DNA of 54,709 nucleotides, filler included, from Jimgerdemannia flammicorona (lineage: Eukaryota), in the NCBI GenBank assembly GCA_003990765.1. It is 3 parts of 3 records of this genome, joined end to end, with 100 filler letters (N's around TTAATTAATTAA, not from the genome) between each part and the next. Parts side by side here need not be neighbours in the genome. Positions count along the whole stretch, not along the records: positions 1 to 18,173 come from RBNJ01002278.1; 2 more parts are not named here. One strand, given 5' to 3'. A program made the position numbers and the translations under genes. Position 1 is the stretch's first letter. Each line of letters begins with the position of its first letter. This document shows, piece after piece, positions 1 to 42,999 of this stretch. The notes below the pieces were generated by a model. It did no database searches, had not been told where the DNA came from, and was given only the letters and a program-made list of their open reading frames with translations.

Positions 1-9
1 AAAAAAAAA

Positions 10-63
<54 letters not shown>
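1..63 (+). repeat. Poly(A) run at contig edge
   Basis: Almost pure A run; probably a retroposon tail where the assembly broke. Confidence 0.8.
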
Positions 64-65
<2 letters not shown>

Positions 66-699
66 AGAGAAGGAAGGCCCAGCAGGAGCCATGGGAGTGA
101 ACCCAGAACCAGTGTCAAAGCGAACAGAAGATATGTGGGAGAGTGTGTATAAGGGGGATGAACAAAGAATATAACTGAAAATACATCAGCCATTTATTGC
201 CATGTAAAAATACAGTCCTTATATATAAAATATGACATCCCAAAAGAGAGGATATGCCACAACTTGGGGCAAACTGAATTAGGAACCACATGACTGCTGG
301 AGATAAGCAGAGATAAAGGGGGAGTCAATCCCAGTTGCAGAATAAAAATCACAAATAAACATAAATAAAATAAATCCAAATCAAGATTAAAAAACATCTG
401 CAGACTCTGAAGAGGTGAGCATGAGCAAGGGGTGAGGCCGAAATGGAGTGAGCCATAGTGAGCCTGAGTGAAGTAAGGGGCCGAAGGCAGCGGAGGGGAG
501 CAGAGTAAGGTCAAGACCCCAGAGCAAGTGCGAGACCCCAGAGGGGGCAAGGATGTTTTTTAATCCTCTCCAGTAGAGCCAGAGGCACTGGAAGATAATG
601 AAAATACAAAACAAGAGCAATGGATTAAAGAAGAAACAGAAGGAAGATATAAATGAGTGATCAGAGGGTATTGAGAAAGAGATGAAAGTCTATGATATG

Positions 700-1936
700 A
701 AAGAGAAGAGTGCAGGACAGTATCAGGGCATTAAGCAACCCAGCAAGTATGATCAAATGGTATGACAAGAATCAGGGGTGGGAAATAAGAGAGGGTATAG
801 AGAGGATAAGGGGGGAGGGAGGGAAGGGAGGGGGGGTAAAGAGAAGAGAGATGGAAAGAGCGAACAACAGACTATTCAACAGAAGCAAGCAGATTGTGAA
901 CAATAGAAATTGGGTAGGCATGACAATGGACCACAAAGTTGCCAAAAACTCGAACAGCAGACACCTAATCAGAATGATGAGAGCAGCATAGTATAAGATG
1001 ACAAGCCTCACCACAAACACATTCTAAAAGAGTACAACAAGAATGGTTAGACAAGAAGTCAGAGAACTGTTGAGAATTAGGAAAATGAGAATAAACAACA
1101 GTTCAAAAGAGAGAAAGAGAAATGGAAATGTCCAAAAAGGGAATACTAGTCATACTGCACACCCAAGTAATAGAATGATGGAGAGGGTAGATACCTAGAA
1201 ACATGCTAGGGATATTAATACCAGTAACAGTAAAGACAATAAAGTTATTGATATATTGGCAAAAGAAGATATTCCCAGCCCAGAACATGATAGATAGAGA
1301 TGAAGAAAGATCACATATCACATAAAGTTCATGGGCCAGACCAATGAGATTGGCAAGGGTGGGAGTACAATTCATATCCATGGGAATATCAGAAGTCTGG
1401 TAAAAAGAGCTAAGGGCTGACTCAAAATAATTCGAGCCATAGACAAGGAGCATAAGCTCAACAATAGAAGCCAATGAGACTGGGAAATCCAAAGAAAAGA
1501 CAATGGAACCCAAGAAGTGAAGGCAATCATTGATCTCATCAAAATGAATAGCAGTATAGAAGGAGGAAAAGTCACCAGAGGCCAAATGGGAAAAATGGTG
1601 GACAGACACAATGGTGGAGCAGAGAAGGGCAAGCTCCTGAGTATCATGAAGAATAGTATACTCAGGCCCAAGACAGTATTGTAAGAGAGCCATCCAGAAG
1701 AGGAAGAAGCAGGATAACCACTTTAAAATCTCAGTGGTAGGGGAACTATAAGCAGCCATAATGAGACACCAAGCCAAAGTAGACTTGTAAACTTTAGGAA
1801 GGGTATAAAAGACTGGAAGACAAATGTCCGGAGAGGACAAAGAGTCCTGGAAGAAGTTGAAAATGGGATTCACAAATGGGGAATCTGAAAGTGATCTGGC
1901 ATGAGTCAGAGAAACCCAAAGAACAGAGGTCCTACA
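700..1936 (-). mobile_element. Degenerate Penelope-like element, reverse transcriptase region (boundaries approximate)
   Basis: ORF 1103-1873 has PLE RT motifs FYTLPKVYK, AAYSSPTT, GDFSSFYTAI, NYFE..FYQTSDIPMDMNCTPTLANL, FCQYINN (decayed RYIDD) and PFLDISI. No GIY-YIG motif recognised. Confidence 0.7.
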
Positions 1937-4635
1937 GCACTCCTTTCACCGGTAACATTTGGGTGACACAAGACTCAGACAACACTTTTCACTATGTTTT
2001 GGTGTCTGATGATTAACAATATGGATGGCAATGATCGAACTGGTGAGCGTACTGGCCAGGGGGATGACAGCACCTTTGACTGGCAGCAGGTGGGGAGGAG
2101 GGGAGATGGTTTGGGGATGCTGGGGGCCTCGATGGCCAGCCGAGGTCCTGGTGGTAGAGAGAGGAGTGGTCTGAGGCAGAGAGGAGGGGAGAGGTTGACC
2201 TTTGCTGACAAGGTCAGAATGGGGAAGATGGCTTCAGGTCTTGATGGTTGGCTGGGCCTGGGGAAGGCATTGATGGCTGCTGCTGGGGGACTGGGAGGTG
2301 TACCCAGGGGAGTCACTGTGGGTGGGGGAGGAGCAGGTGTAGGGGCTAGAGATGTGACTGTTGATGGGGCTGTGACTGGAGATTTGGCAAAAAATCCAGA
2401 TGTGATGGCAGTTGATAATTCGGGATGGGGAGTGGGCATGAGACCTGGGGACCTGGTAGATGGAGTTATGGGCATGGTGTCGGCCCCATTACTCAAGAAG
2501 TCGAGGTTGGAATTCGCAGTCACAATGTGTTTCCGGGGCTTGGCAGTGATGGCAAGGATGATTTTGGGGCTAGTGGTGCAGGAGGCAAAGGGAGCAGTGT
2601 CGGTGAAGTTTTTGAAGGGAAAAGAAGGGGTCAAGGTGGAGTTTGAGGAGGAAGACACCTTGCTGGCAGTCTTGGAGAAAGGGGTGATGGTTGGCGGAGT
2701 TGTCATTCCTATGGCCAGGTGTATGCACTGGGACCTCCGAGTGGTACAGTTGACAGTACTGGATCTCTCTATGGTATCGAAGGAGAGGACCAGGGAGTTG
2801 GTTGTGGAGGTAATCAGGGAGTATAAAGAGATTGTGGATGTTGGGTTCAAGGTCTGGGAGGGTATGGAGCTTTGGACTGGTGACATCAATGTTAGGGTGA
2901 GGCTGGCTAGGAGGGAGAGTATGGAGAAGTCAAGGGACTGGCTGGTGATGCTGAGATAGGGACCAGTGGAGTGTAAGGTCATGAGGGTGAAGGGGACTCA
3001 GGAGGAGGAGGAAGACCTGTTGGAGGCTCTGGAGGATCTGGAAGGGGTAGTTGCAAGGAGGAGATTGGTATGGAAGAAGTTTGAAGCCAGGACGGTGGTG
3101 GGGGAGGTGGATGGGAAGAGGGTCTGAATGGAGAAGGGGGCCTGGGAGAAGCTGCAGGGGAGGAAAATCCAGAAGGAGCTACTGGTGAGATCGGATGGGG
3201 GTAGGGCTGGTGGAAGCTCAGGGGAGAGGGGTGCAGAATTGCAGGAGAGCATCTGGGCTGAAGAGGGTGAGAGAGCCTAGGGTAGGGCTCAGCTGGGAGT
3301 AGAGGTGGAGAGGATAGGCAATATGGAGGCAGATGCAGACATGAGTGAAGGTGTATACCCCCAGTATAGTGTCTCAGGTGGAGCTGAGGGAGAGGAGGAG
3401 CTGCTTGATGTGCCAGATAAGGAGTGGGATGAGTCAGTGTGGAGGAGCATGCTAGTGAACCCTGAGGTGGATGGGGGATAAATCACTCAAGATATAGCAG
3501 AGGCAGTGGATGAGGAGAAGTGGATGTGGAAGACTCTAGAAGAGGTAGCAGCTGAAGAGCTGGGGGGTGAGGATTTCAGGGTGATGGAAGAAAGGCATTG
3601 GGAGGAGATCCTATGGAGGGAGGAGGTACCGAGGAAGATGAGGAATGAGATCCTGGCTGTTCTCCTGGAGTCAGTTGAATATCAAGTCGATGATCAGAGG
3701 GAGGAGGAACTTAAGAGAATTGTGAGCAACAGGGCACTATTCTTGTGGAACTCAAGGAAGGGACTGGAGAAGTGGCATGCAGTCTGCCTGAATTATTGGG
3801 TAGATATGGAGGTGGTGGATGGGGTGGAATGTCAGGAAATCTTGGAGGCACTGGATGCTTAGACTAATGTAGAGGGTGACTTGGAAGCTGAATGGTGCTT
3901 GGATCTGGCTGAGGATGAGATGAGCATAGAATACTAGGATGGGGTCTCTATTATGACATTTTTTCAATATGAACAGTATAACTAGGATATTCTCTTTAAA
4001 TGTTAATGGGTTATGGGGGGTGGCTAGGAGGAAGTATATATTTGGATAGCTTAAGAGACTAGATGCAGACCTCTTCTTATTATAGGATGTTCATTATAAA
4101 GCAGATGTGGACTTACAGGATTGGACTAAGAAATGGGAGAGTGCAGCAGTATGGAGGGGGAAAGTGTATATCCTTGTTTGAAAAGGGATGGGGGACATTG
4201 AGGATATTGGACATTGGGGGTCTCAGGTAGTGTGGAGTAGGTGGATGAGGCCTGGTTGGAGCTCATTGATGGTTGGGTCTTGTTACTGCCTGGCTGAGAG
4301 AGGGGAGAGGGTGGACTGGGTTCGCAGATTGAGAGAGGCTGGTGTATTGAGAGAAGTTGGGCTGGACTGTATGGGGGGTGACTTCAACATGGTATAGGAT
4401 AAGGAGATGGACAGAACAGATGGAGGGAGAGGCGTGTAGGGTGAAAGTGGTGGGCTGGGTGACTGGTTGGAGACAGAGAGGTTGTGTTCTCTAGTGGACT
4501 CGGGAAGACATTTTTGGGCCGATCGACAGGTGTACACCCACTGAGTGGCAGGGCTGGGCTCCAGGATTGATTGGGTTTTGACAGCGGAGTGTTGGGGAGT
4601 AGATGTCTGATCAGTGCTGGAAGTAGTTTAGTGTC
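1937..4635 (+). mobile_element. L1/Tx1-like LINE copy A, 5' part (ORF1 and APE endonuclease); 5' boundary approximate
   Basis: ORF1 fragments 1994-3862. ORF2 from ATG 3969 shows endonuclease motifs SLNVNG, LFLL*DVH, GGDFN. It resumes at 15100 after the Gypsy insertion. Confidence 0.85.
1994..3862 (+). pseudogene. LINE ORF1 (about 620 codons, internal stops)
   Basis: In-frame fragments 1994-2959 and 3506-3862; clearly homologous to 43146-44804 in LINE copy B. Confidence 0.75.
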
Positions 4636-6717
4636 TGTAAGAGGGTTGCTTTTTAGAGTAACCGTTATATAGTTCTGGAAAGGTTTTCTGGAGGTTCTGG
4701 ATATTCTGGAGGTTCTGGATATTCTGGAAGACCGTTTTCTTATGGTCAAGATCAATTTCATATGGAGTATGTCCTCTACACTTATTGATTTCAAGATCGG
4801 TTGACATCTCAACCAAAGTCCCTTTTTCAGACTAGTTCTGGATGTTTAGGATTTTCCATATTTCAGGAAGTTCAAGAAACTAAGACCAGCTTAGTTGAAT
4901 TGGCGTATCACTGCAGACAATACCCAATTAGGAAATTTTGTGACAGGGTTAGGAGGGGGACCTAACAGAGAGTAGATTTACTTAAGAGTGGTTTGTGGGT
5001 TATTAAATAGATTTATTCACTATTCATAATATTGCTATACTAGGAGTAGTAGTGTGAAGGGATATTGTGGGGAAGTATTCAGGAATGTTCTTGTGTGTTC
5101 GAGTCTGAGATTCTGAGGTCTGGGAGAGGGGGTATTTATACTAGTGAGGGGCTATCTGGACTATGCTAGATATGGATGTAGCACTAAGTACCTTTGCTGA
5201 GTCGGAATGCAGTCACATAGTACAAGTGTGATCTGACATGTCAAGAGATCATCTGACTGCTGAGTCAGTTCACAGTCACATCATACAAGGCTAATCTAAC
5301 TATACTATGACTGCTAGGCTATTTATGGGTTTAGGCACTGTCTGGATAGTCTTCGATGATATCACCATCAATTGCATCATCTCTGATGAAGTAGTCATCT
5401 AGGAATAATGGTTCGCAGATTACTTCTCCTTGTTTGCTGAGGTAATAGTACATTGGAACTTCGTCTTCGTCCCACAGGATAGCATCGTCTGTCTCATATG
5501 CTGAATAAGGTATTGGTGGGTGAAGGATGGGTGTATTGTCTTCACTTTCATTGGATTCACTATCTGCATACCTTCTATAGGTTACAGCACTATGAGTTGC
5601 AGAGTTATAGTATGCTGGCAGCTGTGGTTCATGTCACTCATACTTGGGTGGTGGAGTGGTTGGTTCGATCTCGAGAGTTGTCTGAAGGTACAGGTTGTGA
5701 TCTCTGGTCTCTTCATTATAGTTGAAGTAATCGGGGGTGAATGCGGGTTGGTATTCATACCAGTGGTCATTGTCCCAATAAGTCTCATATGTAGTTATGA
5801 ACTGTTGTAAGTTCATTAGCAAGGTTGGCAGAGTGATCAGGGTTGGCAGAGATCCTTGGCTAGAGGTCATGTTGGCATCAGAGGGATCATTGTCTTCTGC
5901 TTCATCTTCATCAAAGTGGATTATATCATAGATGTCCTTCACAGCATATCCAACTTGGGGCATTTGCAGGATATGATCATTGGGGTGTGGGAAGGTTCTG
6001 TCTGTGGTTTTGACGTACTCGAGGTACTTCTGGTTGAGTTCTTGTATCATGTCATCGATTTGGCCATAGGACAGGGTAGCAACCATTTTGCTGGTAGTAA
6101 CTCTGAGGTGAGGAATAAAGGTGCTGTACTTGTAGAAGAGTTCTCAATGTTTGCAGGTAATAAGCTTCTGGTATTGAGACATCTGGGTAATATCTGTATC
6201 ATGGTGGTGTTCGATCATGTCTTCCAGGAGGCGGCCAATCTGGTAGTAGCTTGAGATTTGTCCGATTTGGTGGGCCTTGCTAAGCATGTTCAGGGCATTC
6301 CATTGGGCTTCCACAAAGTAGAGGGGTGCTAGACTATGGATATTCATGAGGGGCAGAGGGGGTGTGGCTTGGTTGACAATGGCATTCCAAATGTTAGTAT
6401 AGATGCGGTTGTAGATCTCAGTGGTCATGTTTGTGTGTTTGGAAGTTTGTAGTTGTTGTTTGTTTTGGTTCTCTGTTTCGATGTGTCTTGGTGCTCAGTA
6501 TATATACATTTGATCCTGATTGATAAGATTCTGTTTGTGTAAATCTTGTGTTCTGTGACTTCGTATTGACTCAGCTTTGTATGCTGTGACTTCGGTTTGA
6601 CTCAGCTTCGTGATCAAGCAGGTGATTTCCAGATTTGTTCGAAGGTCGCATGTGATTTCAGTAGCTTGTTCAGAGGGTAACATATAATTTCGGTGACTTG
6701 GAGGTTGTGTGCTTACA
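4636..6717 (-). repeat. 3' LTR of Gypsy element 1
   Basis: Direct repeat of 13013-15094. On the minus strand it has TATAAATA near 5133-5140, AATAAA near 5012-5017, and 9-bp tandem units (TTCTGGAGG/TTCTGGATA on +) at about 4673-4729. Confidence 0.97.
5331..6428 (-). pseudogene. LTR (U3)-encoded accessory ORF, 365 aa, unknown function (copy in 3' LTR)
   Basis: ATG 6428 to TAA 5331 in one frame; TGA stops at 6144 and 5634 are CGA in the other LTR. Confidence 0.85.
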
Positions 6718-6733
6718 ACTCTCCCCTTCTTAG
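6718..6733 (-). other. Polypurine tract of element 1
   Basis: AAGAAGGGGAGAG on the minus strand immediately before the 3' LTR. Confidence 0.85.
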
Positions 6734-6939
6734 CTTTCGACATCCTTATCAGGGCCTTCTAATTTTGTTCAGTAATACAGGGAGAATAGGCTTGCTTTCA
6801 GTTTCGCCATTTTTCCAGAGAGTTAGTATTCTTGTCTTGTTTTGCTGAGTTCTTGATTTGGTTTGCAACAATTATAATATTCAGGAGGATAGTATATAGT
6901 ATGTACAGATAGGTGTGGAGTATTTGGTTCTAGTTATTC

Positions 6940-9900
6940 AAGGAATCATATTCCTGAACTAGGTCAGTAGTATTCTGGAGATTGGTCTTGGGTTCCCAGA
7001 TTGCATCATGGATTGGATAACCTTTTTATTTGACAAGGTACTCAGGGTGGCTCTTGTTACCACGTTTGTTGAGGATTTGTTCAACTTTGTACTCTTCTTG
7101 GTCATTAATGATGACAGGTGCAGGTGGTTTGGTGGTCTGGTTTGAAAATAGCTCATCATCATTCTCATTGTATCACTTGAGATATTGAATATTAAAGACT
7201 GAGTGAATCTTAATAGTGTCCGGTAGTATCAGTTTGTAGGAGGTTGGAGAGACTTATGCAATGACTTCAAATGGTCCAATGAACTTGCTGTTCAGCTTTG
7301 TAGATGGTCTGTACTTGAGGTTGTCAACTCGGTATCCTCTGATATCTAGTAGGACTTTTTCTCCAATATCAAAAGTTTCTTCTTGGCAGTGTTGGTTAAC
7401 ATACTGTGATTGTTGTTCTTGAGCTCGCAATAAATTCTCGATGGCAATCTGGCTTAAATTGCACATTCAGAGTAAGAATTCTTCAACAGCTTCAACTGTG
7501 GAGGGTTCTTCAGTGGTTCAGATAAGTGTCAAAGGGGTGTTTGGATTTTGTCCAGTATTGGCAAAGAATGGGGTCATTCCAAGAGAGGCTTGCTTGCTAT
7601 TGTTGTAGGCAAACTCAACTATGATGAGGTGTTCATGCCAGTCATCTTGTCTGTAGGAAACATAGTTCCTTAGCATTTGTTCCAGAGTTCAGTTCATTCT
7701 TTCAGTTTGGCCATCAGTTTCCAGGTGAAAGGCTGTGGATAGTGCAAGTTTTGTTCCAAGGTGTGCATGGAGGGCTTTCCAAAAGTAGCTGGTGAATTTC
7801 GGGTCTCAGTCACTAACAATGATCCATGATAGCGGAAGATGTTGTCAAACAAGAGTGTGGCTGTGTCTGGTGCTGTTGCAGTGGTGGTAGTTGGTACAAA
7901 GTGGGCTTGTTTGCTGAGATAGTCTACAAAGACCACAATTGTATCTTTTCTGTTCTTAGTTTGGGGTAGTTATACAATAAAGTCCATAGAGATTTGTTCC
8001 TAATTCATGGATGGTACTGGGATAGGGTAGAGTAAGCCAGGTTTTGCTAGTGTTGAGGACTTGTTTCGTTGGCAGTCATCACAGGAAGTGATGTAGGTTT
8101 TGAGCTGATCTACCATATGGGGCCAATAGAAGTTTCGGGAGATAACTTCGTAATATTTATCAAATCCTAAATATCCAGCTGTAGGGGCATCATGACATTC
8201 AAATAGGATAGTCCTTTGGAGGTCTCGGTTGTTTGGGACATATAATCTGTCCTTATAGTAGATAGCATTGTCCTTGAGTTGGTATTGATTATACTGGGTA
8301 TGCTTATCAGTATCATCATTGTTCAGGATTTCTCGGAGTACTTGAGCTTCCTTATCATCAACACATGCTGCAATGATTTGTTCCATGATAGTGTTGGTAA
8401 CCAAGGTCAGAGTTTGGATAACCTCTTCGATTGGTGGTCTGGAGATTGCATCGGCAACAATATTTTCCTTACTAGGGCGGTACTGGATTTCATAGTCAAA
8501 GTTGGTGAGGACTTTCATCCATCTAGCTTGCTTTCAAGAAAGGGTAGCCTGTGTCTTGATGTTGACTAATGACTTGTGGTCAGTCAATACAGTGAAGTGT
8601 ACTCCTTCTAGGTATGGTCGCCACTTGATCAGAGTGTCTACGATGGCTAGTATTTCCTTCTCATGAGTTGTATAGTTGATTTTGGCATCATTGAACTTGC
8701 GAGAGTGATAGGCCACAGGGTGTCCTTCTTGCATGAGCACTGCTCCAAGAGCTAGGTCAGAGGCATTAGTAGTGACTTCATATGGTAGGGCAGGGTTTGC
8801 CACTTGAAGTACTGGTGTGGTTATCAGGGCATCTTTTAGCACTTGAAAGGCAGTATCTTGCTTGTGTCCCCAATTTACAAGATTGTTGAAGTCTTTCTCT
8901 TGTTTCATGGTCCAGGGTTGTTCTTGTTTCTTACTATACTTGGTCATTTGGGTGAGGGCAGTAGTGATTTTAGCAAAGTTGGCAACAAATCGCCTATAAT
9001 AGTTTGCTAATCCCAGGAATGACTGGAGGTCTTTTAGCTTCTTGGGTCTGGGCCAATCTTTGATTGCAGAGATTTTACTGGGGTCCACTTTGATTCCATT
9101 TGGAGTGACAATATGTCTAAGGAATTGAATTTCTTTCAGGAGAAATTCACACTTGCTAAGTTTTGTAAAGAGTTGGTTTTCTCGGAGTTTCAGTAGTACT
9201 AGTTCAAGGTGTTCAAGATGTTCCTCCAGGGTTTTGCTGAAGACTAGAATGTCGTCAATGTAGACAATAACAAATTTGTCCAAGTATGGATGCAGAATGG
9301 TATTCATCAGTGTCTGGAAGGTTGCTGGAGCATTAGTTAAGCCAAAGGGCATAACTAGGAACTCAAAGTGTCCATAGCGAGTTCAGAAAGCTATCTTGTA
9401 GATATCTTCTTCTTTCATGGCAATTTGCCAGTAACCATTTCACAGGTCAAAAGAGCTCATGAATTGTGGGTTGGTAAGCCTATTGAATATTTCATCAATC
9501 CTTGGTAGTGGGCAACAGTTCTATGGTCTGTTCATTGAGATTGCAGTAGTCAATGCACATTCGTAGGTCTCCTCCTTTCTTGACAACAAAGAGGACTGGT
9601 GCACCATAGGGTGATACGCTGGGTCTGATGAATCCTTGTTCTAGGAGTTCATCAATTTCTTTCTTAAGTGTATCGATTTCTCTTGAAGACATGTGGTAGA
9701 TTGACTTGAAGGCTGGTTTGGCATCTGGGATAGTCTTGATTGCATGGTCTACTGCTCATTTGGGAGGTAGGCCTTTTGGGAGCTTCTTTGGGAATATGTC
9801 TCGGAATTTCTAGAGTAGTAGTCTGACATGGCTGTCAACTTTGGAAAAATCTTCTTCAGAGTTCTCGGGTTCTCCTTTGGATAGTCGGATGGAGATGGCA

Positions 9901-10475
9901 AAGAGAGGGCATTTCTTGGCCAATTTCTTGAGTTATAGCTTGTTGATGTGGGTGATCTTTGGTCCAGGGTCACTAGAATTAAGTAGGTCCTTTTCACCTT
10001 GCAGTTTGAAGTGGTGGCATCCTTTCTTGATGGTCAGAGAATGGTTTACCCAATCAATCATGGGGTTCTCTTGTTTTAACCATGGAGTCCTAAGGATGAT
10101 TTCATTGTCAGGAAGTGATATGATTTGGAGGGTAACATGTACTTGGTAGTCACCAATTCGGAAGGGTAGGTTGCAGACTTCTTTGCTAATAACATGTGAG
10201 GTTCCATCAGCTATAGCAACTGCTTGAGTTTGCTGTACTGGAGAGATAAAGACCTTGAGTCTGTTGGCTGTCTCTTCATTGATGAAGTTGCCTGAGGCAC
10301 CACTGTCTATCATAATCTTGACAGGTGCTCCATTGACAAAAGCCTTAAGGGTGAGCAGTTTGTCTGATCCAATGGTGGTGATTTCAGTTGTAGGAGCCTT
10401 TCTTCTGTTGGTTCTTCTTTGGGCCAGTTCGTTGACACAAGAGAAGCAATCATCAATCATTCGAGAAGAGTACAT
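6940..10475 (-). pseudogene. Gypsy pol: protease, RT, RNase H, integrase, chromodomain
   Basis: [69 protein letters not shown]; chromodomain KVEQILNKR..EYLVK*KGY..AIWEP near 6960-7095. Contains stops and frameshifts. Confidence 0.95.
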
Positions 10476-10493
10476 TCCAATACCATGAGAGTA

Positions 10494-10958
10494 TCAGCCA
10501 CTTGATATATATCCATCTTCGATCTTCTTGTAGAATTGTTCTTCTTTGCTCATGGTAGGTTGGGCTGGGGCTTTGTTTGATAAGCCAAATCCTTTGGATC
10601 CTCGGATGGTGGGCAGTAGTTCAGAGACTTCTTTGACTGTCAGGGTTGACTTGATTTTTTTGAATAGGATCTGGGCAATGTAGAAGCCAATAGGGATCTT
10701 GAAGGGTGTCCAACTGTGGTTTCGAATAAGGACAATAATTTCGCCTGTGTAATCCTTGTCAATGACTCCTCCTTCTACTAAGAGTCCTTTCAATGCTAGG
10801 CTACTGCAACAGCATATTCTTCCAACATGTCCTTCAGGGATTTGGATACTGATTCCTGTGTAGACTTGTTTGACTTCTCGGTTGGAAACTATAGCTTCTT
10901 CAGCTGCATACAGATCATATCCAGCTGCCTTTTGACTTCCTTTGGTTGGGGCCTTCAC
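10494..10958 (-). CDS. dut: dUTPase domain of the Gypsy polyprotein
   Basis: All five dUTPase motifs: AAGYDLY, (R)SSL, GGVIDKDYTGEI, IAQIL, RGSKGFG. In frame with gag and protease. Confidence 0.93.
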   Translation of the reverse strand: MKAPTKGSQKAAGYDLYAAEEAIVSNREVKQVYTGISIQIPEGHVGRICCCSSLALKGLLVEGGVIDKDYTGEIIVLIRNHSWTPFKIPIGFYIAQILFKKIKSTLTVKEVSELLPTIRGSKGFGLSNKAPAQPTMSKEEQFYKKIEDGYISSG

Positions 10959-13193
10959 AGTTTGTCTTAACTTGACAAAGTCCAGTATTCTGGTGGTCAG
11001 GTTGTTGAGGTGATGCAGAGTGGTAACAGTTGCTCGTATTGCTATTCGGGGTTTTCAGTTGGGGCAGGCACTGGCCATGTGTCCTATCTTTCGGCAATAG
11101 AAGCATGCTCCACTTCTTCAAAGTTCATTCCTTTCGCCTTCAGTAAGTTTCTTGAAGGTACTTGGCTGGGTGGGTTCATAACTTCTGGGTGTCCAAGAGG
11201 TGGATGTGGAGGGAGCTCGGGATGCTTCATGCTTGGGTTCTTCTTTCTTGGTCCAAGTTTTTTCCTTGTTGTTAAATTGTCTTCGGGGCAGAATTGGTCC
11301 AGCTGTTAGGATTCGCTTGACCATGGTCTTGATTCTTGCCAGGCACCATTGTTGGTGATCACAACCAACTGGGCAGCCTTGTTCTTGGATTTTTCTAGTA
11401 AGCCATTCAGGCAGGGCATCGAATAAATGGTCTGCTCTTATACTATTTCGTGCTTCATCATTGGCAATATATCCTAGGCCAACAGTGTTCAGGAGTGACT
11501 CGAGTTTTGTATAGAAGGTTTCGAATTCTTCTTTGCCATGTATATCAAATTTGAGGTTGCGGAGTTTTACTCAAGATTCAGCAATCATGGTTTCACTGCA
11601 GTATTGAGCAATCATGAGTTGTTTGAGTCTAGGGGCTGCAGGATGGGCTCTATATTCTGGGGCATTATTTGCTGCATTCTGGGCAACTACTGTAGGTTGG
11701 GTATCCCATGTGAGGGATTTTTCAGAAAGGGTTCACCACCATTCTTCAGCAGGTCCTCGGAAGAATGTAACAACTCAGTGGACATAGGCTGTAGTGGTAG
11801 CAAAGAGTTGTTCCAGAGTGTGGTCTTGATTGTTTGTCAGAACATAGTCAGCAACTCGCTCATTAGTCCATTGATTGGCTTCGAAGTTGGTGTCAACTAC
11901 ACTAATGAAGCTTTGGACTTCTTGTGCAGTACCATTGAAGGTAGGTAGGCTCAGATTTTTGGTAGGTTGGGTCTGTTCAGCTAAGGCAGTAATGGTTGCT
12001 GCCATTATGGCTACCTGGGCTGTAAGGTCAAGAATCTGTTGGTTTGCCATATTGTTTACCAGAGGCACTTGGACTGCTGGTAGTGGTGTTACTGGTACTA
12101 CTTGAGGTACTGGTGCAGAGTGTGATGGGGTTCTTTGGATCTGTGTAAGTTGCTAGAGTAGTAGTTGTGGGTCTGGAGTGAGGGCTTGATAGATAACTGT
12201 TTGTTACTGTGTAGGTGTATTCTGTCCTGATGGAGGTACTTCTCCTTTGGTGGTATGTCTGGGATCGAATTCACTGAGATACTCCTCCTCTTCTTTGATT
12301 TGGTCCCCATGTAATTGGGTTTGCTCGGCATCAAAGTAGATGGAATCAGTTGTATATCTGATTTCAGATGGACTTAATTCAAAGTCAAGTTCAGGTTTGG
12401 TATTGGTTTCAGATTCAGGTAGGGCTGTAGCAGAGCCTGCTTCAGGTTCAGGGTCAGGTAGTTGATGAAGGGTTTCTCTTGCTTCTTCTTTAAGGATATG
12501 GCAGGCCTTGCTGTTCTGAAATCAGTAGTATAAGGAGGTCTTGGTCCTAGTGTGGTAAAAGTTGGTAGAGTTGAGCCACTTGGCTACAGAGGCTTGGGCT
12601 TCATGAGGAACTAAGGCTAGAAAGACTACTGCTGATTGTCCTAGGTCACTTGGATTTGTGGAGCTGACAAAACTCTTGTTGAGAAGAGTAAAGAAGGCTT
12701 CAATAAGACCTTCTTCATCTTGACTTGCTGGGTGTAGTGCAAGGAGTTTGGTGAATAGGGTTTCACCTATTTGCTGGTTTAACCAGAGTACTTCTTTCTT
12801 TGAATGAAGTTTATCCCACTTGTTGTAGGTGTGGAGATCAAATTGTCCTTGTATATCAGGTTCAATTCTCTCCAGATTGTCAGATAGTTCATGATAAATT
12901 CCAGTTCAGAGGTTGGGCTTTATACCAACTTGTAGGAATTCTCAGAAGGGTTTGTAGTGGAGTGAGGAAGCGTCTTGAAGCAGAATTGGATTGTAAACCA
13001 CTGCTATCAAGTTGTAAGAGGGTTGCTTTTTAGAGTAACTGTTACATAGTTCTGGAAAGGTTTTCTGGAGGTTCTGGATATTCTGGAGATTCTGGATATT
13101 CTGGAAGACTGTTTTCTTATGGTCAAGATCAATTTCATATGGAGTATATCCTCTACGCTTATTGATTTCAAGATCGGTTGACGTCTCAACCAA
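10959..13193 (-). pseudogene. Gag with CCHC knuckle and long upstream in-frame extension
   Basis: CFYCRKIGHMASAC at 11064-11105; LPTFNGT..VQSFI capsid-like start after ATG 12050; the same frame continues to 13193 with few stops. Confidence 0.8.
12996..13012 (-). other. Probable decayed primer-binding site
   Basis: TGATAGCAGTGG just after the 5' LTR resembles TGGTAGCAG (tRNA-Met-type PBS) with one G>A change. Confidence 0.45.
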
Positions 13194-15094
13194 AGTCTCT
13201 TTTTCGGACTAGTTCTGGATGTTCAGGATTTTCTGTATTTCAGGAAGTTCAAGAAACTAAGACCAGCTTAGTTGAATTGGCGTATCACTGCAGACAATAC
13301 CCAATTAGGAAATTTCGTGATGGGGTTAAAAGGGGGACCTAACAGGGAGTAGATTTACTTAAGAGTAGTTTGTGGGTTATTAAATAGGTTTATTCGCTAT
13401 TCATGATATTGCTATACTAGGAGTAGTAGTGTGAAGGGATATTGTGGGGAAGTATTCAGGAATGTTCTTGTGTGTTCGAGTCTGAGATTCTGAGGTCTGG
13501 GGGAGGGGGTATTTATACTAGTGAGGGGCTATCTGAACTATGCTAGATATAGATATAGCACTAAGTGCCTTTGCTGAGTCAGAATGCAGTCACATAGTAC
13601 AAGTGTGATCTGACATGTCAAGAGATTGTCTAACTGCTGAGTCAGTTCACAGTCATGTCATACAAGGCTAATCTAACTATACTATGACTGCTAGGCTATT
13701 TATGAGTTTAGGCACTGTCTGGATAGTCTTCAATGACATCACCATCAATTGCATTATCTCTGATGAAGTAGTCATCTAGGAATAATGGTTCGCGGATTAC
13801 TTCTCCTTGTTCACTGAGGTAATAGTACATTGGAACTTTGTCTCTGTCCCACAGGATAGCATCATCTGTCTCATATGCTGGATAAGGTGTTGGTGGGCAA
13901 AGGATGGGTGTATTGTCTTCACTTTCATTGGATTTGCTGTCTGTATACCTTCTATAGGTTATGGCACTATGAGTTGTGGGGTTATAGTATGCTGGTGACT
14001 GAGGTTTATGTCGCTCATACTTGGGTGGTAGAGTGGTTGGTTCGATCTCGAGGGTTGTCTGAAGGTACAGGTTGTGTTCTCTGGTCTCTTCATTATAGTT
14101 GAAGTAATCAGAGGTGAATGCGGGTTAGTATTCATACCAGTGGTCATTGTCCCAATAAGTCTCGTATGCAGTTATGAACTGTTGTAAGTTCATCGGTAAG
14201 GTTGGTGGAGTGATCAGGGTTGGCAGAGATCCTTGGCTAGAGGTCATGTTGGCATCAGAGGGATCATTGTCTTCTGCTTCATTTTCATCAAAGTGGATTA
14301 TATTATAGATATCCTTCATAGCATATCCAACTTGGGGCATTTGCAGGATATGATCATTGGGGTATAGGAAGGTTCTGTCTGTAGTTTTGACATACTCGAG
14401 GTACTTCTGGTTGAGTTCTTGTATCATGTCATCAATTTGGCCATAGGACAGGGTAGCAACCATTTCGCTGGTAGTAACTCGGAGGCAGTGAATAAAGGTG
14501 CTGTACTCATAGAAGAGTTCTCGATGTTTGCAGGTGATGAGCTTCTGGTGTTGAGACATCTGGGTAATATCTGTATTGTGGTGGTGTTCGACCATATCTT
14601 TCAGGAGGTGGCCAATCTGGTAGTAGCTTGAGATTTGTCCAATTTGGTGGGCCTCGCTAAGCATGTTCAGGGCATTCCATCGGGCTTCCACAAAGTAGAG
14701 GGGTGCTAGACTATGGATATTCATGAGGGGCAGAGGGGGTGTGGCTCGGTTGACAATGGCATTCCAAATGTCAGCACAGATGCAGTTGTAGATCTCGGTG
14801 GTCATGTTTGTATGTTTGGAAGTTTGTAGTTGTTGTTTGTTTTGGTTCTCTGTTTCGACATGTCTCAGTGCTCAGTATATATGCATTTGATCCTGATTGG
14901 TAAGATTCTGTTTGTGTAAATCTTGTGTTCTGTGACTTTGTATTGACTCAGCTTTGTATGCTATGACTTCGGTTTGACTCAGCTTCATGATCAAGCAGGT
15001 GATTTCCAGATTTGTTTGGAGGTCGCATGTGATTTCAGTGGCTTGTTCAGAGGGTAATGTATAATTTCAGTGGCTTGGAGGTTGTGTGCTTACA
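13013..15094 (-). repeat. 5' LTR of Gypsy element 1
   Basis: Direct repeat of 4636-6717 with identical length. Confidence 0.97.
13708..14805 (-). pseudogene. LTR-encoded accessory ORF (copy in 5' LTR)
   Basis: Same 366-codon frame; the single stop TAA at 14125 is CAA in the other LTR. Confidence 0.85.
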
Positions 15095-15099
15095 GTGTC

Positions 15100-18000
15100 T
15101 GTAGTCTGATCACTGGGGGCTGCTTGGAGGGGGGAGGTTTGGGGGAAATGAGGATGGGCCTGGATATTGGCAGCTAAATTCTTCCTTGTTGGAGGATAAA
15201 GGATTGTGGGAGGGTTGGGAAATGGAGGTGGTTGGAAATATCAGTAGGTGGCAGGAATAAGGCCTTGAGATTGGGGACCGCTGGAGGAGGCTGAAGGTGA
15301 ATGCCTAGGGGTATTGGAGGGAAGCTGGGAAAGGAAAGTGTGCCCAGTGAAGGCAGAGGGTGCTGTGGGCCTCGCGGTATCTGGTAGCACTCATAGAGAG
15401 ATGGGCAGATGTGCTGGAAGATAGGGATGTGACTGATTGGCATATTGTGAGGATTCAGCAGGAGGTGGAAGAGCTTAAAGGAGTATTACGAGGGGAAGAG
15501 GAGGTGAAGCTGCAGGGAATAGTGGCCTGACTATGGTGGCAGGGGCTTGAGGAGGGGGAGAGGCCTACTAGGTTTTTGTTGTGGTTGTTACAGGCATGAC
15601 GAATGAGGCAGTGGTGGGAGGGAGTTCTGGATGCGAATAGTGAGCTGGTGGTGGAGACTCTAGCTATTCTGGACCTATTGCAGACCAGATGGGGGAATCT
15701 ATGGAGTGAGGAGGAAGGAGGAATGGATGCTCTGAATGTTGAAAGGCAGCTGGGAGATTGGTACCCAGACTCTGCAATGGGTCTTGGGGCATTGGGGGAC
15801 CCAGTGAGTGGTGAGGAAATTTGCAGGGTTGTGGCCTTGACGGGTAAGGGGACAGCTCCAGGAGAGGATGGACTTCTCTGGGATTTTTGGCAGAAGATGG
15901 CTGGGGTGAGCGAGGTGCTAGAGGAAATGACTGTTATGTGTGATGGAGTTCTCTGGTCTGGTGCTTAGATTGGGGGATAGTGCTTAGGGCTAGTCTCCTT
16001 GCTCTATAAGAATAAGAGGAGATGAGAGGACTGGAAGAACTGGCGGCCAATCAGGCTTCTTGACATGGACTGAAAACTGGTGATGAAGATCTTGGTGATG
16101 AGGCTGTAAGGAATCACTCAACAGGTACTTGGTGTGGAGCAGTGTGGTTTTGTTGGTGGCTGGTTGATTTGAGATGGGACAGCTTGGGTACATGGAGTGA
16201 TCGAAAGTGCCTGGGCAACAGGGGTGGATGACAGATTGGTGTTTCTGGACCAAGAAAAGGCTTATGATAGAGTGTGGAGGATATGGCTGGAGGGAGTGCT
16301 GAGATGGATTGGTATCCCCCCAGGGTTCCGAGGATCATTGATCAGCCTCTTGGAGGACAGTCAGGCAGCATTGATCATCAATGGCCACAGGGGGGTGACC
16401 TTTCTCCTGGGACATGGGGTATCACAAGGGGACCCCTTGTCGCCCATACTATATGCCCTTTCCCTGGAGCCTCTACTGGATAGAATTCGGTATCAGATTG
16501 GGGGTTTAGACATTTTAGAGATTAATTGGAAGGTGGGGGCCTTTGCTGATGATATGGTAGTCAGGCTGGGCTCCTTGGTAGATGTGGGGGAGTTACAGAG
16601 GTCTGTGGATGGTATGAGAGGGGTTCTGGTGTGAAACTAACCTGGCACAAATGTGAGACTCTGGTGCTGGGTGCTGGAATTGTTAGTGGTGATGTCATTG
16701 GGACAGTGGTACTAGCAGGAGAACCAGTGGGTTATTTGGGGATCTACTTCTTGGTGTTCAGATCTCTTCTTCCCTGGGCATGGTGGAACCAAAAACTTCT
16801 GGAGTGGGGAAATGTTCTGCTGCGATGGGGAGGTCGGCATATGTTACTAGCGGGAAGGATGATAGTGCTGAATGTGTATTGGATGCCGAAGCTGTGGTAT
16901 GTGGGATATCATTTGGATTTCCCTATCTGGGTGGTCAAGGAGCTGTTGAAGATGGCAAGGTCATGGATCTGGGGAGGATGGTGGAGTCAGGTGGGATGGG
17001 AGGTACTCACACTACCCTTGGAAAGAGGTGGGCTGGGCTTAGTGGACTTTGCTAAGTGACTTCAATGTTTGAGAGCTTGGTGGTTACATAGGGCGAGTGA
17101 GCTTAGGGGCTGGGAGTGGGTACCACTTATGCAGAGGTTGTGGGAGGTTCGGTACTCTCTACATGGTGGCTCAGGTGACCTGCTTGCAATGGTGGCCATG
17201 GATGGGAGTAGGAGGATGCGGTTTATAGGCTTCTGGTGGGGGGTGGTGGATGGCACTAAGAGAATTGAACTTTGGTAGCATGGTGATGAAGTCGAGGTAG
17301 ATTGGGGACTGCAGATGTGGCAGTGGGACAGGCTTCTACTGGGTGGAGCTCTGATGGAGAACTTTCAGCTTGGTGAGGGTTTGGAGTGTCTGCGAGGCCT
17401 AGGTGGAGACCTGTGGCCCGAAGCCTGGCAGAGGGTTGGAATTGGGGAGGAGTGGGATTGGAATGGGCTCTGGCTTTAGAGCAAAAGGGTAAGACAGTGA
17501 CTGCCCCCCAAGTTCTGAGTAGTATGGTGGCATATCCTATAGAGGAATATAATGTTAAACTATCGGTCTAGGCACTTGGTGGCCAGTGAAGTGTTTGAGT
17601 GTGAGGATTGTTTCAGTGTTGGTCAGGAGGGTGGTGTGGTACAAATGCCTGAACATTGACTTGGTGAGTGTGACATTTTGGAGGAGTTTTGGAGATGTAT
17701 TATGACCCAGTTAGGGCTGGGTGCTTTGGAGGGAGAGGAAGGGAGGAGATGGGGAGAGCTCTGCTGATGACTGGTGGGTGGGGTTGGGGATGAATGGCAG
17801 ACCCTTGGTTGGGCTTTGGCTATATGGGTTGGATTAGCTGGACATTGGGTTCATGTCTTTGAGGAGGGGTGGCGGGTTGGGGTTGGGGATAAGGTGGCAT
17901 ATTGGGAATAGTTGCTATTGGACATTCTGAATAGCTGGTGGCGAGGTTGGGGGCTGGGTGGGGGGTACCACAGGGGTTTGATGCAGTGTATCTCTCAGAA

Positions 18001-18173
18001 GAGTGGTGAGAGGATTTGGGTAGTGGGTAACTGGGTTGTGCTCAGACAAGGAGAGGTCGAGGGGGGAGGGTTGGGTCCATGGAGTATTGGGTGAGGGTGG
18101 GGTGATATTTTATTGTTAGGATTATAGACATCAGTAATAAAGGGCAGTCCAAGAGACTTTAAAAAAAAAAAAA
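15100..18173 (+). mobile_element. LINE copy A, 3' part (ORF2 RT region, poly(A) tail)
   Basis: SDH, GTAPGEDGL, NWRPIRLL, FLDQEKAYDRV, GVSQGDPLSPILY, AFADDM, GGLGL; AATAAA at about 18136 and terminal A run. Confidence 0.93.
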
Positions 18174-18273
18174 NNNNNNNNNNNNNNNNNNNNNNNNNNN
18201 NNNNNNNNNNNNNNNNNTTAATTAATTAANNNNNNNNNNNNNNNNNNNNNNNNNNNNNNNNNNNNNNNNNNNN
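18174..18273. other. Artificial contig spacer
   Basis: N run containing the all-frame stop linker TTAATTAATTAA. Confidence 0.98.
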
Positions 18274-18284
18274 AAAAAAAAAAA

Positions 18285-19800
18285 TGCAGGCAAATTTGCC
18301 TGCAAATTTGAATGATCTAAGGGATAATATTTGATATAAATTTTTTAATAAAAAATTTTTTTGATATAATTTTTTTTTTACAAACAAATTTACCTATAAA
18401 TTAATATAAGGGATAATATTATATAGTTATTTTTTAAATATTTTTTTATCTCTCTATATAATTTATTCTTTTTTTAAAAATTATAAAACAAACTAGTATT
18501 AGCTAAATATCTATTATCTATATAATAATATCTTAAAAGAAGACTATCTGAGCAAACTTTTATATAGCTTATAATAAATTATAGCTCATTTGTTAAGTAA
18601 CTGATAGTAAGATAGATATACTATTAAAAATTATAAAACTATTACAAAAAGTAAGTATTTAAATAATATATCAAGTTCTGAAAAAGATTAGTTTGAAAGT
18701 TACTATCAAGTAAAAGAAATTAAGATTATTATATTAGTATATTAAAGTTTAATATAATTTTATATAAGTATAAAAACTAAATAATTAATAACTAAAACTT
18801 ATATATATTCTTTAATAAAATAAAATTAATTATTTTAAATCTAATAAATAATAATAAGTATAAAAAATATCAAAGATCTTACTTAAAAGTATTATATAAT
18901 ACTAATGATAAAATTTAAAAGTAGATTAATTATAGTTTAGAGCTATATAAATTATTATAATATTAGATATATAAGATTATTAAAAAAAAAAAAATAGATA
19001 CTGAGCTATATATATAAGCTCTAAAATAGAGTAAAAAATAAATAGAATATAGTTCTAGATAATATTTATAATATATATATATGTATTGGAGTAATATGAT
19101 AAAGAAGAATTATATAAAGTATTAAAATATTTATAAAATATCTATAATTATAAAACTAATTTTTTTCTTAAAAATAAAATAATCTTAAATAAATAAATTT
19201 AATATTCTTAAATATCTCTGATATAGAACTATAATATAGTATAATAATATATATATTTATATATAGTGTTTATATTTAAAATAATAAAATATAAAATTTA
19301 ATAAAATATTGAAATGTATTATATTTTTTAGAAAATATTAAATTACTTTATTATTAATTAAAATATAAATTTATAATAATTTATATAATATTAATCTATT
19401 TTTATCTCTCACTATATATAGATTAGTATAAAGATCTCTTTTGCTATTAGTTTTCTTTATACATATATATAATTATATATTATTTATTGAAACTGATAAT
19501 AATAAATTTACTATTAATAGAATTTTGCAGATACTATTTAAAGATAATTTAAACTAATTAATATTAAGTTAACTTGAGATAAATTGATTAATATTAAGTA
19601 ACTCAAATTAATATAAGTATATAAGTATTATTTCTATCTATCTTACTTAAACTCCTCTATATCTTTGAGATCAGATAAAACTCCAGATAAAAATAAATTT
19701 AAAGATAATATAAGAATACAAATATATATATATATATATATTAATAAATAATATATCTCAGAAGATGTATTGCTCTTATAAGCATTGTCAGTTTTTCCAA
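18285..19800. other. Extremely AT-rich hypermutated repeat relic, family unidentified
   Basis: Very low GC. Begins with palindrome TGCAGGCAAATTTGCCTGCA, which has a transition-decayed copy near 18380. Confidence 0.5.
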
Positions 19801-19820
19801 TATGGCCTTTGTGATACTTA

Positions 19821-21436
19821 CAGTGAGAGACAAAAATAGACTAATATTATATTATTATTATTTTAAAAATTTATTATAATTTAAATATAAATATTATTTA
19901 ATTTATATTTTAACCAATAATAAAGTATTCTTATATCTTCAAGAAAATATATAGTTTATCTATATTTAGTTAATTAATCATATAGTTATTACTATTTAAA
20001 GTTAAATTAATTATTGGTCCATTTTTGTCTCTCACCATTGATTTAGCCAATTTATTTTTATTATTTAATATTTTACATAACTACTCTTTGCTTTAAATAC
20101 TGCTACAACTCTCCTAGGTATACTCTCTATCAATTTAATACAAACATCCTTTGAAATTTCATTTCATTCCTCCCTCATCCTCTCCCAAAGCTCTTCAATT
20201 CCTTTGAATGCTTCCTCATAAGCATTCAGCTTACTCTTTAAGTGCCACTAAAGATGTTCAATAGAATTAAGGTCGGGTGATTATGCTGACCAATCCAGTA
20301 GTTGAAATCCATTATCTTTAAGCCAACCTTTCACTATTTTGGACATATGCTTGGAGTTACCATCTTGCTGAAGTATCGTTTTTTTTTTATCTATACCATA
20401 AAATTTAATAGTTTCTTGCAATTCTTTATGAAGAATGCTGGTATACAGCTCCACATTCATTTTGTCGACGATTCGGCACCTGTATCTGACTCTGTGGCTT
20501 GTCATATATCTCCAAAACATCAACGACCTACCTTCAAATTTGATGGTATCACTCACATGATGTGGCTTGAGCATTTTTGCCCCTTTTTTTTTCCACACCC
20601 ACAATCGTCCGTCAGAGCCCAAATGGTTAATCTTTGTCTCATCTGAGAATATAACCTGTTTCCAGTCATCGACGGTCTAATCCTTATATCAGACGGCGAA
20701 TTGATAGCGAGCCTTAATACATATGTCATAAGAGCAAACATAGTTTCTTCATCTTTGGTGCTGATCTCAGGCCCACTTTTTTCAGCATTCAGCATATCGT
20801 CTTAGGGCTAACATGCATTTTGCCATCTCCTTAAAGTGCTTTCATGACATCAGTAGTGTTTTCTGCCTTCTCAATTGTCACTTGATGAATGACCATGCCT
20901 CATCACGACCAGAAAGCCTATGCGGGCAGCCTCTTTTTGTAATATTTATAAATGTCTCATTGCTGGCGCATAACTCTATTCGTATATATTTCATGATCAT
21001 TGTACCAACACCCATTTGCTGTACAATCTTGCTGGTTGTCTTGCTAGACTTCAATTTACTTATGATAGAGTTGCAGATGGTGGTCAATAGCTTTTTCATT
21101 TTTAAAAAGGGTAAAAATGGTATGGAGAGGTAGAGAATATTCAAATGAATAAGTGTGTGAAGTTTCATATATCTAGTATAATTATTAAATAAGTTATAAT
21201 AAAAAGATCATCAAGACAATAGTGAGGGACAAAAATGGACCAATGATTAATTTAACTTTAAATAGTAATAACTTTATGATTAATTAACCAAATATAGATA
21301 AACTATATATTTTCTAAAAGATATAAGATTACTTTATTATTGGTTAAAATATAAATTAAATAATATTTATATTTAAATTATAATAAATTTTTAAAAATAT
21401 AACAATATAACATTGGTCCATTTTTGTCCCTCACTG
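19821..21436 (-). mobile_element. Tc1/mariner DNA transposon with about 220-bp TIRs; transposase pseudogene about 20079-21099
   Basis: TA|CAGTG...CACTG|TA ends; TIRs 19821-20040 and 21217-21436; motifs RGCPHRLS, SDETKIN, QQDGNSKH, SPDLNSIEHL. Confidence 0.93.
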
Positions 21437-35888: not shown

Positions 35889-36445
35889 TGATTCGCGTCA
35901 TGACGTGACGTTAAGAGGCCGAACGGACAGACGGTACAGTTGATTCAGCGTACCGATTGGGCTGTAATTGTGCGCGTTGAAGGTAACAAGCGTTGTGTGA
36001 CGGTAGACCACATTGTTTCGGAGGCAGAGAAGAGATGGTAAATAGATCAGGTCGGCACAATTTTTTGGTCCATGTTCGAACTAATTATGATGTCACAAGA
36101 GGATTTGTGACTTTGTTTCGAGGGGGTGGAGCAGTCAGGCCACCCAACCAAGACAGATCATAGGACGGCTAAATGGTCTCATCAAAACTCACGCGCTCAT
36201 CGCCCTATGACCGAAACAACCTTCTTGATGAAATCCGTGAATGGTGTTATATGTAGGTTCCGAGAGAAATTGAGGAGCACAGATCGAAACATGAGGGATA
36301 AAGAAGAGTGACCGACGATCGATATGAACCAATAACAGAGGCCGACAAGAAAGAGACAGACAGAGAGACATAAAACGAACAAAACCGAAAGAAAAACAAA
36401 AAACGCGATACACATTTGATAAAATGGGAACAAAAAAAGAAAAAA

Positions 36446-36545
36446 NNNNNNNNNNNNNNNNNNNNNNNNNNNNNNNNNNNNNNNNNNNNTTAATTAATTA
36501 ANNNNNNNNNNNNNNNNNNNNNNNNNNNNNNNNNNNNNNNNNNNN
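36446..36545. other. Artificial contig spacer
   Basis: N run with TTAATTAATTAA. Confidence 0.98.
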
Positions 36546-42830: not shown

Positions 42831-42999
42831 TTCACTCTTAATAAATTGAGTAAGAGTAATAGTAAGAATAGCATTCAGCTATCTGATATATATCAACCTT
42901 TTCTCTGATAACATTCAGATTATACAAACTTCTGACAATACTTAAGATATTATTTTTGGAAAATAGATACTAGTTATATAGCAACTGATGAGTGTTCTG

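Follow-up and report, generated by a model that had tools for sequence, protein, structure and literature searches.

The long terminal repeats (LTRs) of retrotransposons normally hold only control signals and are treated as non-coding. In retroviruses, several accessory genes are known to reach into this region: sag of mouse mammary tumour virus (MMTV) is an open reading frame (ORF) within the unique 3' region (U3) of a betaretroviral LTR and is expressed by splicing, while nef of the human and simian immunodeficiency viruses (HIV/SIV) and bel/bet of the foamy viruses are accessory genes overlapping U3. The latter start before the LTR and merely overlap it, and the internal promoter on which foamy viruses rely is located in env rather than in the LTR. 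Here, we analyzed a window of 54,709 nucleotides (the whole stretch of DNA under study, comprising three joined parts of the assembly) from the genome of Jimgerdemannia flammicorona (GCA_003990765.1), in which both LTRs of a Ty3/Gypsy chromovirus contain the same 365-codon reading frame. On balance, this frame is probably what is left of a genuine gene for an accessory protein of this chromovirus family, situated wholly within the LTR.

MMTV sag would be the closest positional analogue, as there, too, the whole frame is located inside the LTR upstream of a TATA box and is thus present at both ends of the element. Unlike sag, the frame described here belongs to a chromovirus without env in a fungal host and encodes an acidic protein with a polar N-terminus that is modelled as helical; no sequence similarity to sag appeared in any search, and, judging by the arrangement of motifs, its expression was probably unspliced. 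With nef and bel/bet it shares the feature of an accessory gene having sequence in common with the 3' LTR, but here the ORF and its presumed promoter are contained entirely within the LTR, and the N-terminus (MTTEIY) offers, unlike that of nef, no glycine at position 2 for myristoylation. Pfam, PDB-profile and Foldseek comparisons yielded no homology to Sag or Nef.

Additional ORFs have also been described for Gypsy elements. The rice elements Retrosat2, RIRE3 and RIRE8 carry an ORF0, which in Retrosat2 is an orphan frame upstream of gag-pol in an element with 3.2-kb LTRs (PMC3485330). An “add. ORF” is drawn for some fungal chromoviruses (PMC2864245), and Boty-like elements of Botrytis are cited for the antisense gene brtn (PMC8365987). 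As far as the accessible parts of these sources describe them, all of these are, like the frame studied here, lineage-restricted Gypsy ORFs of no assigned function and without outside homologs, and Retrosat2 likewise combines an additional ORF with unusually long LTRs. Compared by description only, ORF0 (upstream of gag-pol) and brtn (antisense) differ from the present ORF, which is on the sense strand and wholly in the LTR. In the literature accessible to us (subscription journals and the supplements of PMC2864245 aside), no ORF inside the LTR of a fungal retrotransposon was described. The frame studied here would belong to the accessory genes of LTR retroelements, with the difference that it sits within a fungal chromovirus LTR.

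One reading frame shared by both LTRs

The LTR pair was defined by self-BLAST of the window, and the two copies were then compared site by site. They align over 2082 bp without gaps and with 93.8% identity. Since the internal coding domains detected with Pfam are on the minus strand, the copy at 13013-15094 is the 5' LTR and the copy at 4636-6717 the 3' LTR:

13013..15094, minus strand: 5' LTR, 2082 bp, starting with TGTAAG and ending with TTACA
4636..6717, minus strand: 3' LTR, 2082 bp, aligning gap-free with the 5' LTR at 93.8% identity
13708..14805, minus strand: LTR ORF, 5' LTR copy; 365 codons plus TAA; internal TAA at 14125-14127 (codon 227; CAA in the 3' LTR copy)
5331..6428, minus strand: LTR ORF, 3' LTR copy; 365 codons plus TAA; internal TGA at 6144-6146 (codon 95; CGA in the 5' LTR copy) and at 5634-5636 (codon 265; likewise CGA in the 5' LTR copy)

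The ORF spans LTR positions 290-1387. Its terminal TAA is common to both copies, whereas none of the internal stops is shared, and the frame is clear of shared stops over 387 codons. In the remaining five LTR frames, we counted 25-43 shared stops, and the longest stretch free of them was 58-147 codons. An earlier reading of this DNA from the sequence alone (hereafter the sequence-only reading) had described both 2082-bp LTRs as holding the same 366-codon frame for 365 aa (14805-13708 and 6428-5331) with non-overlapping stops (TGA/CGA at two sites, CAA/TAA at one) and an intact consensus. This was borne out by our comparison, as was the position of the frame inside the LTR of a Gypsy chromovirus, which follows from the LTR boundaries and the set of Pfam domains.

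The two LTRs differ at 129 sites, comprising 125 transitions and only 4 transversions. Related to the number of available sites, differences were found at 33/56 CpG, 70/330 CpA, 17/197 CpC and 5/290 CpT sites. This spectrum is a signature resembling repeat-induced point mutation (RIP), with an unusually strong CpG component. For reconstruction of the less-mutated state of the ORF, we took C over T and G over A wherever the copies differ. Within residues 1-128, the less-mutated residue equals that of an independent homolog (P0002, see below) at 15/17 copy-differing positions, an agreement that further supports the intact consensus. At the time of insertion, the 365-codon ORF was intact. RIP-like C-to-T and G-to-A changes later interrupted it in each LTR, and neither copy in the window is functional any longer.

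Differences are not rarer inside the ORF than outside (0.071 vs 0.052 per nucleotide), as is expected from neutral decay of two once-identical LTRs. Between the codons of the two copies, there are 46 non-synonymous and 22 synonymous differences. As the two LTRs record decay since insertion alone, the ratio of non-synonymous to synonymous substitution rates (dN/dS) between them is uninformative on selection.

The sense strand of the LTR is rich in A and C (A 722, C 558, T 487 and G 315 of 2082), and its paucity of T and G lowers the frequency of stop codons, so that a long frame could conceivably have stayed open by chance without there being a gene. This was addressed with 5000 first-order Markov sequences of matched composition, considering all six frames. 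An open frame of at least 365 codons occurred in none of them (0/5000), with a mean longest frame of 107 and a maximum of 228 codons. Furthermore, two independent database proteins match the ORF with HMMER E-values of 1e-97 and 1e-67, and their conservation goes beyond neutral expectation. Simulations, relatives and conservation together refute a chance open frame, to which we attach next to no probability.

Relatives and protein-level constraint

Protein libraries were searched with HMMER over 1.84 billion representatives of all lengths and with a word-indexed search over 5.8 billion protein clusters. The HMMER search yielded P0001 and P0002 as the only genuine relatives; the word-indexed search returned P0001 among proteins of near length, P0002 among shorter ones, and both when the alignment profile A1 was used. 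Three further HMMER candidates (P0003-P0005) were dropped as relatives, being tandem-repeat proteins that match in 6-9 short stretches. Scans of metagenome contigs (with alignment A1 and with P0002) and of viral contigs (with P0001) for the DNA of the relatives gave pattern matches, and no relative was among them.

P0001 (247 aa, from a 998-bp contig) is open throughout, aligns to ORF codons 115-364 and ends at the same place as the ORF. The alignment contains 155/250 identities and 203/250 positives and is interrupted only by two in-frame gaps of 2 residues each. Against the less-mutated ORF, identity rises to 165/246 and positives to 209/246. P0002 (128 aa, from a 1180-bp contig) is annotated as a hypothetical protein; it shares the start methionine and is 89% identical to codons 1-128.

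For comparison with neutral divergence, codons 115-364/365 were subjected to simulated nucleotide substitution until the observed protein identity was reached, with 1000 runs per setting. Runs to 62% identity accumulated on average 4.6-5.4 stops, only 0.5% of them remained free of stops, and the highest proportion of positives was 77.7%, compared to the observed 81%. Runs to 67% identity gave similar results (mean 4.2-4.4 stops; 0.9-1.5% free of stops; highest positives 81.6% vs the observed 85%), and 85% positives were reached in 0/1000 runs. Both this similarity beyond the neutral runs and the fact that the gaps keep the frame speak for purifying selection, which has acted on the ORF protein between this element and its ~65%-identical relative. 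Furthermore, only two family members of any length are present in the libraries, and thus there is no large pool of decayed copies that could have supplied a luckily open one. The claim of a real coding sequence under protein-level constraint is accordingly upheld by the simulations, the matches to P0001 and P0002 and the frame statistics.

Element gene or captured host gene

A gene in this position could belong to the element or could have been taken from the host. Codon-position composition was compared with the pol region of the element and with four host ORFs in the window. At third positions, the frequency of G is 0.13-0.14 in the ORF, 0.11-0.14 in pol and 0.27-0.32 in the host ORFs; that of A is 0.25 in the ORF, similar to pol, and 0.14-0.21 in the host ORFs. 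The base profiles of the ORF at codon positions 1 and 2 are almost superimposable on those of pol, while codon-position periodicity is missing from the non-coding LTR segments. A match to a host gene had been named beforehand as a finding that would speak against an element gene; neither a host parent nor a longer or annotated homolog was found in the 1.84 billion representatives or the 5.8 billion clusters. The pol-like composition and the absence of a host parent from these libraries render a recent capture of a host gene unlikely.

Nevertheless, a host gene or gene fragment might ride in the LTR without serving the element, in which case the conservation of P0001 would reflect selection on the host gene. 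P0001 and P0002, which come from short contigs, leave room for this explanation, and the ORF has promoter-like signals of its own, as a captured cassette would. Any such capture would not have been recent given the difference in composition from the four host ORFs, and the frame shows neither introns nor truncation: it has its own methionine and stop, and P0001 shares the same end. Altogether, we consider a passenger of host origin improbable and favor a gene of the chromovirus. Owing to its location entirely within the LTR, such a gene is placed at either end of every new insertion by reverse transcription.

Promoter-like modules and possible expression route

Two promoter-like modules were recognized in the LTR, one upstream and one downstream of the ORF (function inferred from motifs):

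14876..14981, minus strand: module 1, promoter-like; TGASTCA at 14975-14981 and 14944-14950 within a 31-bp tandem duplication, TATATA at 14876-14881
13389..13644, minus strand: module 2, promoter-like, and poly(A) signal, attributed to the element itself; TGASTCA at 13638-13644 and 13575-13581, TATAAATA at 13510-13517, AATAAA at 13389-13394
Minus strand: module 2 in the 3' LTR; TGASTCA at 5261-5267, TATAAATA at 5133-5140, AATAAA at 5012-5017

The counterpart of module 1 in the 3' LTR is located at 6501-6604. In LTR coordinates, the TGASTCA pair of module 1 is found at 114-151 and its TATATA at 214-219, 71 nt before the ATG of the ORF (290). Module 2 comprises a TGASTCA pair at 1451-1520, TATAAATA at 1578-1585 and the sole AATAAA of the LTR at 1701. 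TGASTCA, a Gcn4/AP-1-type motif, occurs at four sites in the 5' LTR, compared to ~0.37 expected (mean of window shuffles, 9.69 per 54.7 kb). These sites are arranged as two pairs, and a TATA-type box follows 60-130 nt downstream of each pair. The ORF ATG has an A at position -3. It is the first ATG past TATATA in the 3' LTR copy; in the 5' LTR copy, the single ATG upstream of it falls at two copy-differing sites.

The ORF ends at LTR position 1387 and TATAAATA follows 190 nt on, in agreement with the earlier claim that the frame ends about 190 bp upstream of the TATA box. By the conventional reading of TATAAATA and AATAAA, the ORF would lie in U3. Here, the sequence-only reading is supported in part: the layout of the motifs fits, while the start site itself is deduced from motifs.

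Based on this arrangement, and given that the gene is real, each LTR may be a self-contained transcription unit, a proposal to which we give somewhat less than an even chance. Module 1 (two TGASTCA sites and TATATA, LTR 114-219) would start an unspliced mRNA of ~1.5 kb, with the ATG at LTR 290 as its first start codon and the single AATAAA (LTR 1701) as its end. The genomic RNA of the element would start at module 2 (TATAAATA, LTR 1578), that is, within the 3' untranslated part of the ORF mRNA.

The sequence-only reading had instead suggested expression from the 3' LTR via a spliced or subgenomic RNA, so that the ORF would be a 3'-proximal U3 gene read from the genomic transcript started in the 5' LTR. 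Indeed, the ORF (LTR 290-1387) lies upstream of the presumed start, so that the genomic RNA would carry it at its 3' end only, and a branch-point-like heptamer (TACTAAC) is found at ~6826, in the stretch that separates the pol stop from the polypurine tract and 398 nt before the ATG. However, a scan of the 10459-nt sense strand for strong splice donors (GTRAGT, GTATGT, GTACGT) revealed only three matches; the ORF copies account for two of them and pol for the third, and the 5' leader has none. The intron would exceed 6 kb, and introns of this size are far longer than usual in fungi. In addition, five ATGs precede the ORF within 480 nt on the genomic RNA, and a nearer promoter-like module stands just upstream of the ATG. 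The suggestion of a spliced or subgenomic RNA thus found no support, and we regard this route as unlikely; the scarcity of donors and the separate promoter-like module lead us to prefer an unspliced LTR-internal mRNA.

Alternatively, the genomic RNA itself might start at module 1. The ORF would then be the first ORF within a repeat (R) region of ~1.5 kb, similar to ORF0/ORF1 of plant elements. The TATATA and TGASTCA sites upstream of the ORF are compatible with this arrangement, and an R region of 2023 bp has been proposed for rice Retrosat2 with its ORF0 upstream of gag-pol, as stated in the accessible part of that report (PMC3485330). On the other hand, a canonical TATAAATA with its own TGASTCA pair stands 123 nt before the sole AATAAA, which is the usual U3/R layout, and the cap would be separated from gag by >1.8 kb and many ATGs. 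A leader ORF in a long R region therefore appears quite improbable to us, and the preferred route remains the short mRNA from module 1.

Predicted protein and proposed role

The protein encoded by the ORF is acidic, with an isoelectric point (pI) of 4.37. It starts with MTTEIYN, followed by a polar helical sequence. Residues 3-141 are predicted to be helical in the AlphaFold2 model (alignment of 4 rows), with a predicted local distance difference test score (pLDDT) of 50-60, whereas the model as a whole is poor (mean pLDDT 34, predicted template modelling score 0.26), especially over residues 146-365. This C-terminal region has a pI of 4.05 and contains 46 aspartate and glutamate residues, 9 lysine and arginine residues, 31 tyrosine, phenylalanine or tryptophan residues and 26 prolines; it is evenly conserved with P0001, including the aromatic motifs. 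For P0001, the model from ESM Atlas reaches a pLDDT of 0.39, with no feature matches and structural rows at a template modelling (TM) score of at most 0.30.

Pfam assigned no meaningful family to any of four sequences (the two window copies, P0001 and P0002), the latter two showing nothing at E ≤ 1. A match of one window copy to RAMP was rejected as sub-threshold (E 0.0066; 16.9 bits vs a cut-off of 27). ESM Atlas features of P0002 at 0.90-0.93 (unnamed small proteins, a closterovirus coat family and a phage translation-repressor family) were likewise dismissed as noise; the matches share 131-155 of 256 features, below the level of a true family, and the recognition value of 2273 is under the mark of 2300.

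The sequence-only reading had envisaged a transactivator or anti-silencing factor and had named profile and fold comparisons as a check. The composition fits such a role, but neither a family nor a fold nor a motif match was obtained: the best hit of a profile search against the PDB was SKA1 (E 0.4), and Foldseek against the PDB gave no match at E ≤ 0.001 (best E 0.91), with a model too poor for such values to carry meaning. As basic residues are few, nucleic-acid binding of the Tat or Rev type is unlikely. If the protein is compared to known effectors at all, it might resemble, in the way it works only, an acidic activator or adaptor of the VP16 kind: by composition, its acidic aromatic region would fit such a protein, with the modelled helical part as a candidate docking domain; no homology is implied. 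We therefore put forward, as a doubtful proposal, that the product acts via protein-protein contacts. The helical N-terminal part of ~140 residues would serve as a docking module and the acidic, aromatic and proline-rich C-terminal part of 220 residues as an effector, which would most plausibly raise LTR transcription or counter LTR silencing through host proteins.

Several points weigh against an accessory gene with its own transcription unit and a regulatory product. Both ORF copies are dead and the internal genes of the element are degraded as well, with no sign of gene activity in this genome. The argument for selection builds on one fragment of 247 aa and one of 128 aa, and on gene calls, which report open frames by nature; P0001 and P0002 are protein fragments that may come from LTRs or from elsewhere. 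The members of each TGASTCA pair sit in local duplications and hence do not represent independent events. The TGASTCA, TATA, Kozak and poly(A) signals were judged by general consensus sequences, and transcription start site, R and U3 were assigned from motifs. Finally, the structure models are poor, no family or fold matches, and the proposed activity is a reading of composition.

Repeat masking removes LTRs before gene annotation, and thus a selected gene inside an LTR would be systematically overlooked. If this is a genuine gene that works for the element, retroviruses are not alone in having accessory or regulatory genes in U3. The gene would then also be a candidate transposon-encoded factor that influences transcription or silencing in fungi defended by a RIP-type mechanism. 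Solo LTRs, usually counted as dead remnants, could still express a protein. In its furthest form, which we regard as distinctly speculative and unlikely, each LTR down to the solo LTRs would independently express, from its own promoter to its own poly(A) signal, an acidic adaptor that enhances LTR transcription or weakens the genome defence against the element. A retrovirus-style regulatory gene would in that case have arisen in a retrotransposon independently of retroviruses.

Structure of the carrier element

The ends of the element show the hallmarks of an LTR retrotransposon, with TG..CA termini and the pentamer GACAC duplicated on both flanks. The remaining features of the element are:

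15095..15099, minus strand: target-site duplication GACAC, upstream copy
4631..4635, minus strand: target-site duplication GACAC, downstream copy
6719..6731, minus strand: polypurine tract AAGAAGGGGAGAG, one base ahead of the 3' LTR
6718..13012, minus strand: internal region with gag zf-CCHC, dUTPase, aspartic protease, reverse transcriptase (RT), RNase H, integrase zinc finger, Tf2-type SH3 and chromodomain

Downstream of the 5' LTR, a TGG follows after 12 nt, with no clear primer-binding site in this stretch. Self-priming was considered as well, but the 45 nt past the 5' LTR have only a single 10-mer complement within the LTR, which is not meaningful. The order of Pfam domains on the minus strand is RVP_2, RVT_1 (7.5e-28), RT_RNaseH (1.8e-31), Integrase_H2C2, SH3_Tf2-1 and Chromo (4.6e-11); the integrase core domain had no Pfam match in the degraded internal region. 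Based on the domain order including the C-terminal chromodomain, the element between the LTRs is a Ty3/Gypsy chromovirus. Its internal domains are scattered across two frames with many stops, and this copy of the element is therefore degraded.

A dUTPase domain (PF00692, E 1e-30) was detected at 10580-10960 on the minus strand, between the gag zinc knuckle and the protease. Among fungal chromoviruses, dUTPase has been described for PosPlaTy3 of Postia placenta, for elements of Phanerochaete chrysosporium and for Tmt1 of Tuber (PMC2864245). The present element has gag, dUTPase, protease, RT, RNase H, integrase and chromodomain, and its dUTPase is placed ahead of the protease at the N-terminus of Pol, which is among the arrangements given in the accessible part of this source (PMC2864245). 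This part does not mention an ORF in the LTR.

Between the 5' LTR and the recognizable gag, a stretch of ~330 codons (12020-13012, minus strand) is almost open in the gag frame, with ~5 stops in this RIP-degraded copy and without a Pfam match; gag may have a long N-terminal extension here, or the stretch may represent a further leader ORF. Both LTRs contain, close to their U5 end (4686-4728 and 13063-13105), a 9/18-bp tandem repeat, TTCTGGAGA, of 4.8 units. A search for an internal duplication that would mark an older, shorter LTR revealed just an 11-mer and a 23-mer repeat within the LTR, and there is no third copy of the LTR or the ORF within the 54.7-kb window. According to the sequence-only reading, solo LTRs would also spread the gene; they may do so elsewhere in the genome.

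Genomic surroundings

The chromovirus is inserted within a retroelement on the opposite strand (1-4635 and 15095-18170, plus strand), which is probably of the non-LTR type and has an RVT_1 match at ~16032-16580 (plus strand, E 3e-18). The sense strand of this surrounding element is strikingly rich in G, with a GC skew of ~+0.5, and diverged copies of it (65-77% identity) are present at 44444-44955 and 50339-51729. The long ORFs present on either strand at 1967-2997 seem to result from this compositional skew. The window starts with a run of 63 A (1-63, 96% matches), which could represent either the tail of a retroelement located upstream or the edge of the assembly.

Four 44-base N runs are located at 18174-18273 and 36446-36545. 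AT-rich blocks at 18001-20000 (GC content 14-18%) and 36001-43000 (24-37%), as expected of RIP-degraded repeats, stand beside gene-bearing sequence with a GC content of ~50%. Ordinary eukaryotic host genes are found next to the repeat cluster at 23779-24897, 25290-25955 and 29191-29697 (all minus strand), encoding a TatD-type DNase, a protein kinase and subunit 2 of the anaphase-promoting complex (APC).

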